Positions 8,899 to 12,218 are shown, numbered from the stretch's first letter. The stretch: 39,059 bases of DNA from Candidatus Doudnabacteria bacterium (GCA_016199215.1 JACQHB010000007.1:1-39059); one strand, 5' to 3'. The notes: generated by a model from the letters alone, not told the origin. Program-made: numbers and translations.

Positions 8899-9984
8899 AT
8901 GTTCAACCTTTTGGGAAACAAAAAAATTGAAGCTTTCGGCCTGGATATTTCCAACGTTTCGATTAAGGCCATGATGCTCGGAAAGAAAAACAACGGGCTT
9001 TTTCCTTTGGCTTTTTCCGACATACAAATTCCCGGCAACATCATCTCAAACCATATGATTACCAATGAGGAAAAGCTTGCGGACCAGATCAAGCGAGCCG
9101 TGTCAGCCGCGGGCAAAATTTCCTCCAAATACGTGGTCGCCTCCGTGCCGGAAGCCAAATCTTTTGTCCGCCTGCTTAATCTGCCCAAGCTTTCCGAATC
9201 AGAATTGGATAGCTCCATCCCCTGGGAGTTGGAAGCCGATATTCCGGTGCCTGTGGACCAGGTTTACCTTGATTGGATGATTATTAACCAGCAGGGGGAC
9301 AAGCTGGACGTGCTGGTTATGGCCACTCCCAAGGATTACGTGGACACCTTGGTCTCTTCAATAAAGTCAGCCGGGTTCAAGCCTGCCGCCCTGGAACTGG
9401 AATCGCAGGCCACAGCCAGAGCGCTGGTTTCATCCGTGGATTCGTCTTCCGCTGTCTTGATTTTGGATATAGCGAGCATTTTGACAAGTTTTGTAATTAT
9501 TGAAAACGGGGTTTTGCAATACACGTCAAGCATTCCGCTGGGGGGCAACGCCTTGACCGAAAGCATTGCCAGAAACTTGGGGGTTTCCGCACCTGATGCG
9601 GAAAAAATGAAACGAGAATTAGGGCTTCTTTCGGACACCAAAAAAGGCAATATTCGGCAGGCAATCCTTCCGATCCTTGATAATATTGTTGATGAAATAA
9701 AAAATGTTGCCCGCTTTCATGAGGAGCATTCCGTGGGCAAAAAACCGATCAGCAAAGTGATTCTTGCGGGGGGTGGCGGAAAGCTGCTTGGCATCACCGA
9801 TTATATTTCAGCCCGCTTAAACCTGGGTGCGGCAAAACCGATTGGCCGAGTAGTGCTTGGGGATCCTTGGGTCAATGTGATTGATTCATCTATGAAGGAG
9901 CAAATCCCGCTGCCAAAAGAGCAAGCCCTTGGTTTGGCTACCGTAACCGGCCTTGCGCTGAGAGGGGCAAGCTATGCCCAGTAA
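8899..9984 (+). CDS. pilM: Type IV pilus assembly protein PilM (actin/FtsA-like)
   Basis: FGLDIS, LILDI, IPLGGNALTESIA, VILAGGG, LATVTGLALRG; TATAAT 8 nt before the ATG suggests a leaderless or short-leader transcript. Confidence 0.92.
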   Translation: MFNLLGNKKIEAFGLDISNVSIKAMMLGKKNNGLFPLAFSDIQIPGNIISNHMITNEEKLADQIKRAVSAAGKISSKYVVASVPEAKSFVRLLNLPKLSESELDSSIPWELEADIPVPVDQVYLDWMIINQQGDKLDVLVMATPKDYVDTLVSSIKSAGFKPAALELESQATARALVSSVDSSSAVLILDIASILTSFVIIENGVLQYTSSIPLGGNALTESIARNLGVSAPDAEKMKRELGLLSDTKKGNIRQAILPILDNIVDEIKNVARFHEEHSVGKKPISKVILAGGGGKLLGITDYISARLNLGAAKPIGRVVLGDPWVNVIDSSMKEQIPLPKEQALGLATVTGLALRGASYAQ

Positions 9985-9997
9985 TACAACTTCGCGC

Positions 9998-10426
9998 ATG
10001 TTCTACTATGTTTACATCCTGGAAAGTTTATCAGATGGTAAGCGCTATATCGGTTTTACCGCCAATTTACGGCGTCGACTAGTAGAACATGAACGAGGAT
10101 TAAACTTTTCCACGAAGTTTCGACGCCCGTTTAAACTAATCTACTTTGAAGCCTGTTTATCCGAAAAAGATGCCAAACGCCGTGAGCATTATTTAAAATC
10201 AACCCAAGCCCAGTATGACAACTTCGATAATATTTTCTGGTTTGCTTTTGCTAATAAATTAACTTTTTTATTCTACATCTCTCTGATGCTAATATTTAAG
10301 TTTGTCTATTCAGAAAATATTAAAAAGCAAAAGCATCGAAGTTGCTCTACTGGGCAAGGTCGAAAGTTTACAGGTTTAAGATTAATCGAGTACCAGCGCC
10401 AATCGGCGTTTGGCACGCGAAGTTGA
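9998..10426 (+). CDS. Stand-alone GIY-YIG nuclease carrying a 50-codon in-frame insertion
   Basis: YYVYIL...YIGFT...LRRRLVEH...STK.RRPFKLIYFE...AKRRE.YLKS; removing the insert gives a 92-aa protein reading KSTQGRKF; start at ATG 9998. Confidence 0.85.
   Translation: MFYYVYILESLSDGKRYIGFTANLRRRLVEHERGLNFSTKFRRPFKLIYFEACLSEKDAKRREHYLKSTQAQYDNFDNIFWFAFANKLTFLFYISLMLIFKFVYSENIKKQKHRSCSTGQGRKFTGLRLIEYQRQSAFGTRS
10209..10354. mobile_element. 146-bp MITE-like element with the same TIR family and 4-bp target duplication CAAG
   Basis: Left end CCCAGTATGACAACTTCGAT; right end (reverse complement) CCCAGTAGAGCAACTTCGAT; CAAG at 10205-10208 and 10355-10358; AT-rich interior. Confidence 0.88.
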
Positions 10427-10436
10427 TATACTGGGT

Positions 10437-12218
10437 ATGTCTGACGAAATTTTTGACAAGGAATCTGCCGAAGAATTGTCCGAAAGCGTTCATCGCTCGG
10501 ATTCTTCCTGGAAGCAGTTTTTTCATAAGAACAAAAAAATTATCTACGCTTCGGCCGGCAGTTTGGTTGTGATCCTGCTTGCGGCATTGGGATGGATGAT
10601 TTTTTCAGGACAAAAACCAGGGGTGGGGCCTGCATCTAATAATGTCTTTGTCAAAATCAAAGGCCAGAGCCAAGTAACTTCCGGTAACGAAGGCAATTAC
10701 ACTGTTGTTTACACCAATGGCGAGGCCGCGGACTTAACCAATGTCACGCTGGAGCTTTTTTATCCGTTAAATTTTAAATTTATTTCCGCCACTCCTTCCC
10801 CGACCAATTCCGAAGGCCAAAGATTCAATCTGCCGACGCTTAAAAAGGGAGAGAACGCGGAAGTTAAAATTAAGGGACAGCTTGGGGGAGCAAGCGGCGA
10901 AATTAAAGAATTCAAGGCCAGGCTGACTTATTCTTTATCTAATTTTAATTCGGAATTTGTAACGGAAGACAGCTTCACGACCCTGATTCTCCCGCCTAAC
11001 TTAAGCGTGGAAATTACAGGCCCAATAGATGTAATTGGCGGCCAGGAGACCACGTTTTCCATCAATTATTCAAACGTATCAAGCCAGGCATTTGAGAATT
11101 TGGCCTTAATCGTGGCATATCCCTCGGGATTTAAATTTGCATCCAGCGTTCCGCCCCCTTCCAAGAACCAGAACTATTGGACAGTTCCAAAATTGGACAA
11201 GGGCGGTTTGGGAAAGATAGAAATCACGGGAAGCTTTTCCGCTTCCAACGCCGCTGATGCCATAGTAGGAGTAGAGCTCGGGCAAATAACCAACAATACT
11301 TTCGCGACGTTAATTAACAGCTCCGCGGTTTTTAAAACGACCCCATCATCGTTGTCTTTGACTTTAACAGCCAATCCTAAAGACGTTGTTTCGCTTGGCG
11401 ACAGCATTGAATACACCCTCGATTACGGGAATTTCGGAACTATCGGTTTGACAAACGTCGTGATAACGGCAAGCTTGCAAGGAACGGTTCTTGACTTAAC
11501 CAGATTAAATGTGAGGGACGCGATAGTTACCGGCAATGTTCTGACTTGGAAGTCGGCGACCAAAAGTGAACTGAACCTGGTTTCGCCCAACCAGAAAGGG
11601 AAAATAACCTTTTCTGTGCCCACCAAATCCTCGCTTACAACCAATATTAAAAACCAAACTATTGGGGCGTCAGCTTCGATTTACGCGGCTGAGGTTCCCA
11701 AGCCAGTCCACGTCCCGGATGTCAATTTGAAGTTGGCGACACAGCTAGGCTTGTCCGTAAGCGGCCGGTATGTCCGGGGAGCCTTGCCTATGAAGGTCGG
11801 CGAGTCAACGACCTTTGAGATAACTTTTATCCTGTCGAATTTAAGCAATGATCTTGAAAATGCGCAGGTAGTTTCCTCCTTGCTCCTGCCTTCTTCCTCC
11901 TGGAAAAATATTATCGCCCCTGATTCGGAAAAATCCAGGATTTCTTTCAACCCTGGAGCGGGCAAGATTATCTGGAAGATTCCGCAGGTTTCTGCTTTTG
12001 TCGGCAAGTACGCGCCGGCGCTTATGGCCTCGTTTGAGCTTGAGGTTATACCGACCGAAGCGGACAGAGGAAAGACTGTTAATCTTCTGAAAGATATTCA
12101 AGCAACAGGCAAAGACCTGTTCATTGGCAAGGATGTTTCATCGGGTAATGTTATTGACATAAACACGGCAAACATTGATGACGATCAGTTAAACCTGAAG
12201 GGAAGCGCAGTGCAGTAG
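10437..12218 (+). CDS. Bitopic membrane protein with tandem Ig-like (DUF11-like) domains
   Basis: Start moved to ATG 10437 (MSDEIF); one N-terminal TM; repeated modules YTVVYTN, FSINYSN, GDSIEYTLDYGN and PxxFKFxS. Confidence 0.75.
   Translation: MSDEIFDKESAEELSESVHRSDSSWKQFFHKNKKIIYASAGSLVVILLAALGWMIFSGQKPGVGPASNNVFVKIKGQSQVTSGNEGNYTVVYTNGEAADLTNVTLELFYPLNFKFISATPSPTNSEGQRFNLPTLKKGENAEVKIKGQLGGASGEIKEFKARLTYSLSNFNSEFVTEDSFTTLILPPNLSVEITGPIDVIGGQETTFSINYSNVSSQAFENLALIVAYPSGFKFASSVPPPSKNQNYWTVPKLDKGGLGKIEITGSFSASNAADAIVGVELGQITNNTFATLINSSAVFKTTPSSLSLTLTANPKDVVSLGDSIEYTLDYGNFGTIGLTNVVITASLQGTVLDLTRLNVRDAIVTGNVLTWKSATKSELNLVSPNQKGKITFSVPTKSSLTTNIKNQTIGASASIYAAEVPKPVHVPDVNLKLATQLGLSVSGRYVRGALPMKVGESTTFEITFILSNLSNDLENAQVVSSLLLPSSSWKNIIAPDSEKSRISFNPGAGKIIWKIPQVSAFVGKYAPALMASFELEVIPTEADRGKTVNLLKDIQATGKDLFIGKDVSSGNVIDINTANIDDDQLNLKGSAVQ

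Follow-up and report, generated by a model that had tools for sequence, protein, structure and literature searches.

The known transposase classes are the DDE, HUH, serine, tyrosine and Cas1 enzymes. Among the short mobile sequences of bacteria, the MITEs (miniature transposable elements with inverted repeats), e.g. the Correia elements of Neisseria and the Rickettsia palindromic elements, are repeat-bounded units with small duplications that occur in many copies at operon and gene borders, and the REPIN/REP sequences are palindromic non-coding repeats thought to be moved by RAYT, an HUH/Y1 enzyme that makes no target duplication and is the product of a small, single-copy, domesticated gene flanked by inverted copies of these repeats. 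GIY-YIG nuclease domains are found in selfish genes inserted between host genes, i.e. the homing endonucleases (I-TevI, Seg proteins), of which the I-TevI-type enzymes carry C-terminal DNA-binding modules, home into long sites and are not known to leave inverted repeats or duplications (PMC1564403). The prokaryotic Slx1-like proteins are treated in the same source as vertically inherited minimal nucleases, and the available portion of that account describes no repeats, duplications or mobility for them. GIY-YIG open reading frames (ORFs) have further been reported in non-intron insertions of rRNA genes of the candidate phyla radiation (CPR) (Tsurumaki et al. 2024, PMC11270868). Here we analysed a stretch of 39,059 nt from Candidatus Doudnabacteria bacterium (GCA_016199215.1, JACQHB010000007.1), hereafter the window, in which positions given without a contig label are counted; an element at 9973-10439 carries in it, between inverted repeats and a 4-bp target duplication, a gene for a GIY-YIG nuclease as its sole gene. 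The element belongs to a family, here named GIY-A, which we read as mobile cassettes whose nuclease would be their own mobility enzyme and would also move MITEs in trans; this reading is given a probability of about 0.55.

The element is bounded by terminal inverted repeats of 20 bp (left repeat, CCCAGTAATACAACTTCGCG; reverse complement of the right repeat, CCCAGTATATCAACTTCGCG; coordinates in Table 1). The two agree at 17 of 20 positions, and the three mismatches make up a central triplet that reads ATA at both ends on the top strand, so that the triplet is direct and not inverted. TATG adjoins both ends of the unit. The motif CCCAGTANNNCAACTTCG has four matches in the window, against 0.02 expected from shuffled sequence, and the four form two nested inverted pairs, namely the outer unit and an inner pair. 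The nuclease ORF starts 1 nt past the left repeat and its TGA lies within the right repeat; an in-frame ATG further upstream, at 9974, is the ATG of the left TATG and extends the ORF to 9974-10426. An initial annotation of this DNA had described the repeats, the TATG on both sides and the position of the gene between them in the same way, and the sequence bears it out on each of these points.

The inner pair of repeats delimits an ORF-less MITE of 146 bp that has CAAG on both sides and interrupts the nuclease ORF. Excision of this MITE and one CAAG in silico yields a unit of 309 bp with an ORF of 92 aa, the protein of which reads MFYYVYILES...GRKFTGLRLIEYQRQSAFGTRS*; the 5' part of the ORF alone matches PF01541 (GIY-YIG) with 1.3e-15. 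The size of ~309 bp and 92 aa given in the initial annotation therefore holds for the restored unit and not for the window as it stands, where the ORF is split. The insert of the window is a dead copy of a GIY-A element, its nuclease ORF being broken by the nested MITE.

Intact units of the GIY-A family measure 306-318 bp and consist of a bipartite terminal inverted repeat of 20-24 nt (CCCAGTA-ATA-CAACTT..) and one ORF of 91-97 aa. Six units were found in four genomes of the bacterium's family, all of them enclosing the same ORF (five of 309-315 bp, and one of 207 bp with an ORF-internal deletion). One of these genomes (G019) has two identical copies at two sites, another (G008) has one intact copy and the 207-bp unit, and a genome of the same genus (G001) has at least three insertion sites, before the enolase and murA starts and between atpA and atpG, with each copy at a contig end and the contigs breaking within the unit. 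In the 146 genomes of the order, the nuclease relatives of 57-87% identity whose flanks were read (about 22 hits) carry these repeats; the order and the whole class comprise the same 146 genomes, and a rescan at class level added only 15 exact-pattern units.

GTDB was scanned with one genome per species and a loose pattern of 20 specified bases, which returned 75 stretches; 19 of these had no repeat pair passing the repeat filter and were taken as chance, two further pairs (L185, L199) were dropped as chance, and 55 repeat-bounded units were kept (56 with the copy of the window). Some of the 55 are elements already fetched from the genomes of the order, one (L242) is actually two tandem ORF-less units with no nuclease, and six have broken ORFs of 7-41 aa. 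The units share one design, at differing loci in many Patescibacteria: the same repeats, an ORF offset of +22 and a stop codon inside the right repeat. The record titles of the 55 units name Candidatus Doudnabacteria, Yanofsky-, Niyogi-, Portnoy- and Roizmanbacteria, Levyibacteriota, Paceibacterota, 'Saccharibacteria' and 'Patescibacteria group'; a few records are labelled Gammaproteobacteria or Bathyarchaeia, and those labels are not trusted. Tandem arrays were seen at L236 (two units) and at L242:1-370 (three units, placed on the start of a thioredoxin-like gene), with a single TATG between neighbours, which shows that new copies have repeatedly inserted into the duplication of one already resident. 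The core of the initial annotation, a minimal mobile unit of ~309 bp with a GIY-YIG gene alone, is borne out by 55 further units, identical copies at two sites and tandem arrays, and the tabulation of inverted pairs across genomes that it had called for recovers the enclosed GIY-YIG ORF and the duplications widely.

These insertions have a start codon as their target and capture it in frame, a point that the initial annotation had overlooked. The target duplications of the 56 units are TATG (34), ATG (12), ATGA (3), TGAA (3) and others (4). The host ATG that abuts the left end is in frame with the nuclease ORF in 47 of 56 units (M-PSNTTSx-M/V-FFYVYVLES), and the ORF opened by the duplicated ATG reaches 60 aa or extends beyond the locus in 49 of 56. 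When the empty sites were reconstructed, 47 of 55 units lay on the initial ATG of an ORF no shorter than 60 aa, compared with 811 of 9906 control ATGs (8.2%). A recognisable N-terminus is present in many of the downstream products, e.g. MPELPEVE (Fpg; seen three times, each in another lineage), MCGIAGI, MPALYRTYRPKRF (DnaX) and MREINLLP (PilN). A target logo of 45 sites has T at -1 in 37, T at -2 in 23, and C at +3 and +4 in 20 and 18 sites, respectively, with CC after the target ATG in 13. A T at -1 has no translational meaning, and TATG is therefore read as a preference of the enzyme; the restriction to start codons we read as reflecting the survival and expression of such insertions.

Capture of the host start codon is also apparent in single units and in the annotation of relatives. 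Unit L081 has ACG at the internal start position, so that a start is possible only at the host ATG, and 100-102 aa, which includes the 8-residue extension, is a common length among the gene-called relatives listed. The nuclease TGA lies 9-10 nt upstream of the duplicated host ATG. The non-inverted central triplet gives TAA at the left end, where it terminates an upstream gene whose end overlaps the start codon, and TGA at the right end, where it terminates the nuclease ORF, and we infer that the provision of these two stop codons is its purpose. With a host ATG captured in frame, stop codons supplied by the repeats and the host gene re-started, a promoter or ribosome-binding site of its own would be dispensable for the cassette; the nuclease would be expressed from the start signals of the host gene, and the host gene would be re-started by translational coupling.

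For the encoded protein, 45 distinct intact ORFs were available among the units. Nonsynonymous and synonymous substitution rates have a median ratio (dN/dS) of 0.12 in the 189 pairs, out of 990, whose dS could be used, dS being saturated and only three pairs having a dS of 0.05-1; this shows that the nuclease ORF is under purifying selection and that the nuclease is maintained. The alignment has 21 columns without variation, among them those of R27, H31 and the GIY and YIG tyrosines, and E51 is conserved to at least 90%. By sequence, the UPF0213 proteins 1zg2 (E 3.4e-7) and 1ywl are its nearest solved relatives. An AlphaFold model (predicted local distance difference test, 85.9) shows a GIY-YIG core and a long C-terminal helix; Foldseek with this model placed 1zg2 first (3.7e-5), followed by nine Slx1 chains (template-modelling score 0.57-0.62, E 1e-3 to 8e-3), with I-TevI at E 0.6-0.8 only, and a match to TIGR01453 stayed below the cut-off (24 versus 56 bits). 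Just two longer relatives were found (162 and 186 aa), with no fused domains; the protein family forms one cluster at 50% clustering, and in the wider minimal family 840 representative clusters score at 1e-10 or below. By its sequence and predicted fold the protein is a minimal UPF0213/Slx1-like GIY-YIG nuclease. The titles of the matched PDB entries, and these only, point to structure-specific cleavage of branched DNA.

Other repeat types come with other clades of the nuclease. The type-B repeat (TCCCGTTAGAGACA; TCCCGTTAGA..) carries its own GIY-YIG clade of ~45% identity and its own MITEs. In the genome of the window, a 273-bp type-B unit (C4:86929-87201) holds a GIY-YIG paralog of 45% identity between ATCCCGTTAGAGACA repeats. 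Pairs of the type-B pattern occur in 33 of the 146 genomes, mostly as MITEs of ~100 bp (TCCCGTTAGAAAT), eight of them in this genome (Table 1); the pattern matched five nuclease units of 270-273 bp, a sixth is L267 with 269 bp, and L281, L283 and L284 are further B-type nuclease units. Duplications of 4 bp flank six of the eight type-B MITEs of this genome (TGAA or TTCA in four, plus TTGA and TCCA), placed at ATGAA; the flanks of two type-B copies differ, with TTCA at one end and TGAA at the opposite end, as though an inversion had occurred between copies. In the type-B unit L282 the frame of the host ATG continues into the nuclease (ATG-AAT-CCC-GTT...), and the nuclease TGA overlaps the regenerated host ATG. 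A type-C repeat, ATCCTGTATA-(3-4 nt)-CCCCCAG, surrounds a GIY-YIG ORF of 56-59% identity to type A in another genome (G028; L279, L280), and the reading frame is open through the left repeat, as in types A and B. Repeat type thus tracks nuclease clade, with a second type of repeat and a probable third.

ORF-less units with type-A repeats are common as well. Beside the nested MITE (type-A repeats CCCAGTATGACAACTTCGAT and, as reverse complement, CCCAGTAGAGCAACTTCGAT), the 521-kb assembly of this genome has two more such pairs, C1:1340-1481 and C6:14462-14607 (TTGA), and a lone end; the duplication of the former is TAAG in the common orientation and CTTA on the plus strand of the contig. Inverted pairs of the A motif occur in 12 of the 25 family genomes. 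A set of 59 ORF-less copies, 56 fetched from the family genomes and three of this genome, was analysed, with lengths of ~105-150 bp. Their duplications are of 4 bp in 42 copies, 3 bp in seven, 5 bp in three and 0-1 bp in seven, so that 52 of 59 combine terminal repeats with a duplication of 3-5 bp as bacterial MITEs do; the commonest duplications are ATGA (8), TTGA (8), TCAA (5) and TATG (4), which correspond to overlaps of stop and start codons, to start codons and to TTGA(CA) boxes. The nested 146-bp element is also non-coding as a MITE should be, which the 309-bp unit with its conserved 92-aa ORF is not. In one MITE-bearing genome (G014), two of six units combine inner repeats of the GIY type with TATG duplications, and these two may be deletion derivatives of nuclease-bearing units.

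In an alignment of 44 units, the outer 14 nt of the ends are nearly invariant and positions 15-20 vary, yet always match the opposite end; 100% and 99.5% of the cells are paired, nine of 17 end pairs have changes on both sides, and G-U occurs in only two of ~750 cells. This strict Watson-Crick matching, with nearly no G-U, speaks for a need for complementarity or identity of the ends at the level of DNA. A second, internal hairpin (left arm TGCCAAACGCCG, right arm CGGCGTTTGGCA) is 87% paired over 44 elements, with compensatory changes and some tolerance of G-U; it sits between the codons for DAKRRE and SAFGT (columns 201-212 and 298-313 of alignment A2). Folded as RNA, the unit is closed by the repeat stem, with a minimum free energy of -94.6 kcal/mol (z -4.9). 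Such a fold, the covarying and G-U-tolerant internal hairpin, the position of insertions at operon junctions, start codons and TTGA(CA) boxes, and repeats that stay near-perfect around MITE interiors diverged to 37-74% identity would suit repeats that are kept for a host- or RNA-level role, e.g. as an RNA stem at operon junctions, in units that are old and immobile, with a nuclease that is domesticated or a relic. We regard this as improbable: identical copies lie at different sites in one genome, contigs break at multi-copy units, insertions occur in tandem, clean duplications mark dozens of unrelated sites, the pilM/pilN junction is uninterrupted in most relatives (see below), the repeat stem is almost devoid of G-U pairs, and the dN/dS is that of a maintained nuclease.

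The possible presence of another mover was examined in several ways. Among the 25 family genomes, no inverted A-type pair lies more than ~330 bp apart, hence no parent IS (insertion sequence) with the same ends was found for the MITEs, and singleton A repeats are short back-to-back ends. The enclosure of a DDE transposase by the same repeats, which according to the initial annotation would have reduced the element to a passenger-carrying MITE of a known IS family, was sought in these 25 genomes and not found; the sole ORF between the repeats is the one matching PF01541. Ten transposase Pfam families, eight of them DDE families (PF01609, PF00665, PF13358, PF13701, PF13546, PF00872, PF12762, PF01610), were run on five element-rich draft genomes (G019, G001, G017, G008, G010), with profile controls that matched in 1-9 of 14 named genomes. 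No match in the five genomes was obtained for PF01609, PF13358, PF13701, PF13546, PF07282, PF00872 and PF01610; rve matched in three of the five, Y1_Tnp in two and IS1595 in one, and none of the ten families is common to all five. Two of the genomes that hold both GIY-A copies and MITEs (G001, G008) matched none of the ten. The rve matches are IS481/IS3-like ORFs of 292-341 aa (L245, L246 and L247, in G019, G010 and G017) and are not flanked by the repeats studied here.

These results bear on the view that the repeats are the ends of a conventional transposon system and that its transposase, DDE or other, acts in trans from a phage, a plasmid or an unassembled part of the genome. The GIY-YIG protein would then be a selfish rider or maintenance factor, e.g. 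one that promotes re-copying by cutting vacated sites, as TnpB does for IS605 elements, or that has an addiction function. Several observations speak for this view or weigh against a nuclease that moves its own element. Inverted repeats with a duplication mostly fixed at 4 bp are the classic signature of a transposase. GIY-YIG enzymes are, to our knowledge, hydrolytic nucleases and not strand-transfer enzymes, a hydrolytic nuclease alone leaves integration unexplained, and the 92-aa protein has no separate DNA-binding domain. Three genomes (G010, which is 98% complete, G011 and G014) have 11, eight and six repeat pairs, respectively, and no GIY-A gene; G010 has the most uniform MITE copies of all (internal identity with a median of 74%, up to 97%), and it also has rve, Y1_Tnp and IS1595-type genes. 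The MITE interiors (L099-L154) are mostly unrelated to one another and to the nuclease gene: the range of 37-74% given above is that of their median identities within genomes, where ~40% is near chance for AT-rich DNA, and their 24-nt ends are near-identical across genera. With interiors so unrelated between near-perfect repeats, a simple origin of the MITEs as deletion derivatives of an autonomous element fails as an explanation, and the diversity of the interiors appears at odds with a simple history of burst and decay. The scan of GTDB covered only pairs 270-300 nt apart, so that longer elements beyond the 25 family genomes were invisible to it, and a transposase that is unrecognised or unassembled is possible, as ten families and five draft genomes were covered. 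Lastly, any P-value for the placement on start codons is overstated, the copies being related and not independent, and this placement could mirror the survival of harmless insertions instead of targeting.

A transposase acting in trans is nevertheless the less probable explanation, and we consider it rather unlikely, for no A-type pair is wide enough to hold one in the family genomes, two genomes with GIY-A and MITEs match none of the transposase families, the rve genes have no such repeats at their sides, the cargo is invariably the same ORF at the same offset and under purifying selection, and two or three repeat types each have their own GIY-YIG clade, which is unexpected for a passenger. 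As between a nuclease that serves its own element and a passenger, the evidence leans to the element's own gene, since the cargo is always this ORF, purifying selection acts on it, and other repeat types come with other GIY-YIG clades.

In the reading that we prefer, the nuclease would be the mobility enzyme of the GIY-A element and would act on the MITEs in trans. Slx1 nucleases, the nearest solved relatives after UPF0213, cleave branched DNA. The Slx1-like fold and the compensatory Watson-Crick changes of the ends lead us to propose that it would recognise and cut the stem or cruciform formed by the repeats, or their paired ends; it would cut T-ATG targets with a stagger of 3-4 nt, and ligation and repair by the host would complete the move. 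That these elements constitute a new class of prokaryotic transposon, with a 92-aa Slx1-like GIY-YIG nuclease as sole element protein and transposase, insertion at start codons and MITE offspring across the Patescibacteria, is a tentative proposal, which we would rate slightly below even odds.

The coordinates of the features are compiled in Table 1. To the left of the element lies pilM, whose stop codon TAA is provided by the left repeat, the final three codons (GCC CAG TAA) entering it. In 16 of 19 relatives pilM runs into pilN uninterrupted, the pilN ATG overlapping or abutting the end of pilM and lying within TATG in nine of the 19 loci. The remaining three junctions carry other insertions (an A-type MITE with TGAAA, a B-type MITE with TGAA, and a B-type remnant), and in one distant record the pilN start codon is occupied by a nuclease unit, which makes the pilM/pilN junction a hot spot of insertion. 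By this comparison the left flank of the window is the conserved pilM/pilN TATG site. Simple homing into pilM/pilN was rejected as an explanation, since the unit occurs at dozens of unrelated genes.

Table 1. Features of the GIY-A element and its surroundings in the window, and type-B MITEs on other contigs of the same genome
Feature	Position	Strand	Evidence and remarks
pilM	8899..9984	+	Pfam PilM_2 6.9e-45; stop inside left repeat; relatives end ...RGASYETN* and similar
Left TATG duplication copy	9973..9976	+	ATG 9974-9976 in frame with nuclease ORF; equals pilN start codon in relatives
Left terminal inverted repeat CCCAGTA-ATA-CAACTTCGCG	9977..9996	+	Motif and pair search, covariation alignment
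GIY-YIG ORF, 5' part, codons 1-70 (MFYYVYILES...YLKSTQ)	9998..10208	+	PF01541 1.3e-15; ATG at 9998; from 9974 reads MPSNTTSR-M...
Internal hairpin, left arm	10171..10182	+	Pairs with 10404-10415, 12/12 complementary
Left CAAG duplication of nested MITE	10205..10208	+	Sequence
Nested 146-bp MITE, type-A repeats	10209..10354	+	No ORF
Right CAAG duplication of nested MITE	10355..10358	+	Sequence
GIY-YIG ORF, 3' part (GRKFTGLRLIEYQRQSAFGTRS*)	10359..10426	+	In silico restored ORF; TGA 10424-10426
Internal hairpin, right arm	10404..10415	+	Covariation over 44 elements
Right terminal inverted repeat CGCGAAGTTG-ATA-TACTGGG	10416..10435	+	Holds nuclease stop codon
Right TATG duplication copy	10436..10439	+	ATG 10437 is start of downstream gene
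Downstream gene, 593-aa membrane-anchored DUF11-repeat protein	10437..12218	+	DUF11 1.5e-13; after recO in relatives
Type-B MITEs, ~84-115 bp	C2:38904-39018; C3:15288-15385; C4:20352-20451; C4:42146-42242; C6:26648-26731; C8:11025-11116; C8:25514-25606; C13:5809-5902		

The gene to the right of the element encodes a DUF11 protein and is not pilN. It follows recO in all three relatives with a readable upstream side, each time on a contig other than that of pilM, and a contig of the same-genus genome G001 begins inside it. Neither pilN nor recO was found in this assembly, which is 79% complete; in the same-genus genome pilN and pilO follow pilM, and pilN, pilO and recO are all missing here. The empty site that the initial annotation had obtained by removing the element and one TATG consequently holds for the left junction only, where the alignment of pilM loci of relatives that it had called for does yield an uninterrupted junction, and is rejected as ancestral sequence for the right flank, the DUF11 gene being no neighbour of pilM in relatives. 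As the two flanks are not neighbours there, the join of pilM, element and DUF11 gene is likely due to a recombination between two copies or to an assembly join.

Public Logan contigs of four runs (X1-X4) of one study, three of which may be the source sample, were compared with positions 9600-10800; such contigs cannot demonstrate absence, and a gap in coverage proves nothing. In run X3 a contig passes from pilM into the unit without a break, up to the nested MITE (9600-10279). The unit was recovered as a contig of 467 nt with no differences, ending at both TATGs, in three of the four runs and in fragments in the fourth, and the depth is ~330 at the repeats versus ~10 at the flanks. The side towards the DUF11 gene is bridged solely through a 30-nt repeat overlap. 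This weak bridge, and the two flanking genes that are not neighbours elsewhere and whose expected neighbours are both missing from the assembly, are what could be said for an artefact, i.e. chance inverted repeats or a purely chimeric assembly. That explanation is very improbable, given the excess of the motif over chance, the exact 467-nt contig in three runs and the contiguity with pilM, and the 55 other units of the same design; a chimeric join would affect only the identity of the right-hand gene and not the element. The element itself is real.

Further observations were made in the metagenome contigs. Run X4 contains (record 27) the identical 467-nt composite of TATG, unit with nested MITE, and TATG, with no differences, in a 732-nt contig whose flanks are unlike the window, so that the dead composite is present at a second site or in a second genome. 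Mini-units consist of two repeats around a GC-rich hairpin of 30-35 nt, with at least five different fillers. Other contigs have a right end joined through CAA to a left end (depth 24 and 15), which could represent tandem units or the junction of an excised circle.

The genome of the window has three more small GIY-YIG paralogs (C2:4377-4592, minus strand; C6:38220-38462, minus strand; C1:3175-3396, plus strand), each located between a truncated 5' copy of a tRNA gene with hairpins and the complete gene, namely tRNA-Gln(CTG), tRNA-Ser(CGA) and tRNA-Ser(GCT). Judged by their sequence context, these look like a different, tRNA-targeting insertion that duplicates part of its target. In two other genomes, two type-B ends surround an apparent tRNA gene (L249, i.e. 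G042:C1:5743-5844, and G045:C64:8768-8859; …GGGTTCGACTCCCAGCAGCCC…).

If the nuclease moves the element, it would represent a new enzyme class among transposases, and the unit of ~310 bp would be the smallest autonomous transposable element known and set a new lower size limit; the smallest known to us is IS200 with ~700 bp. Whatever the mover, the cassette would be a compact way for selfish DNA to live inside the operons of very small, gene-dense genomes with no promoter or ribosome-binding site of its own. It accounts for many of the short ORFs annotated in Patescibacteria as 'GIY-YIG nuclease', 'putative endonuclease' or, mis-named, 'excinuclease ABC subunit C', and it matters for these metagenome-assembled genomes, in which contigs break and may be joined chimerically. 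Being small, with a substrate defined by repeats and a short target, the nuclease could also serve as a tool.

IS1380, IS5, IS701 and eukaryotic piggyBac resemble GIY-A in repeats beginning with CC(C) and in a ~4-bp duplication; those elements encode a DDE transposase of more than 300 aa, for which PF01609, PF13701 and PF13546 found no match in the five element-rich genomes, and we know of no TATG or start-codon target in these families. Single-strand transposition of the IS200/IS605 type was set aside in view of the real duplications, the true terminal repeats and the lack of a shared Y1 gene. A group I or II intron or an intein was set aside too, the units lying outside ORFs, at start codons and with duplications; no Rfam ribozyme search was made. 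In contrast to the I-TevI-type homing endonucleases, the GIY-A protein is, with 92 aa, all catalytic domain and one helix and closer in fold to Slx1/UPF0213, its sites share little beyond T-ATG-(CC), and the units are found at dozens of unrelated sites, all of which show the repeats and a duplication. By these sequence features GIY-A is neither a member of the DDE insertion sequences nor an I-TevI-type homing endonuclease nor an HUH system. With the UPF0213 or prokaryotic Slx1-like proteins (COG2827; PDB 1zg2, 1ywl) it has the minimal domain in common, by sequence and by fold. The GIY-YIG insertions in CPR rRNA genes occur in the same phylum and go without mention of inverted repeats, duplications or start-codon placement in the available text of PMC11270868; these unexplained insertions may be related to the elements described here.

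A literature search found no description of elements with inverted repeats and duplications that encode solely a GIY-YIG nuclease, nor the terms 'GIY-YIG transposase' and 'GIY-YIG transposon' in use there, in agreement with the initial annotation, which knew of no family of this design. By this comparison the design appears to be new, and the nuclease is its putative transposase. Compared with bacterial MITEs, the 309-bp unit differs by a selected ORF, by the lack of a transposase-bearing parent IS among the family genomes and by the start codon captured in frame. Compared with RAYT, the gene of GIY-A encodes a GIY-YIG nuclease, is multi-copy, is mobile together with its repeats and comes with duplications of 3-4 bp, and Y1_Tnp was matched in two of five genomes only. 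By analogy, the unit would work most like a REPIN-RAYT pair, or like a MITE family with its master copy, from which it differs in enzyme class, duplications and target.

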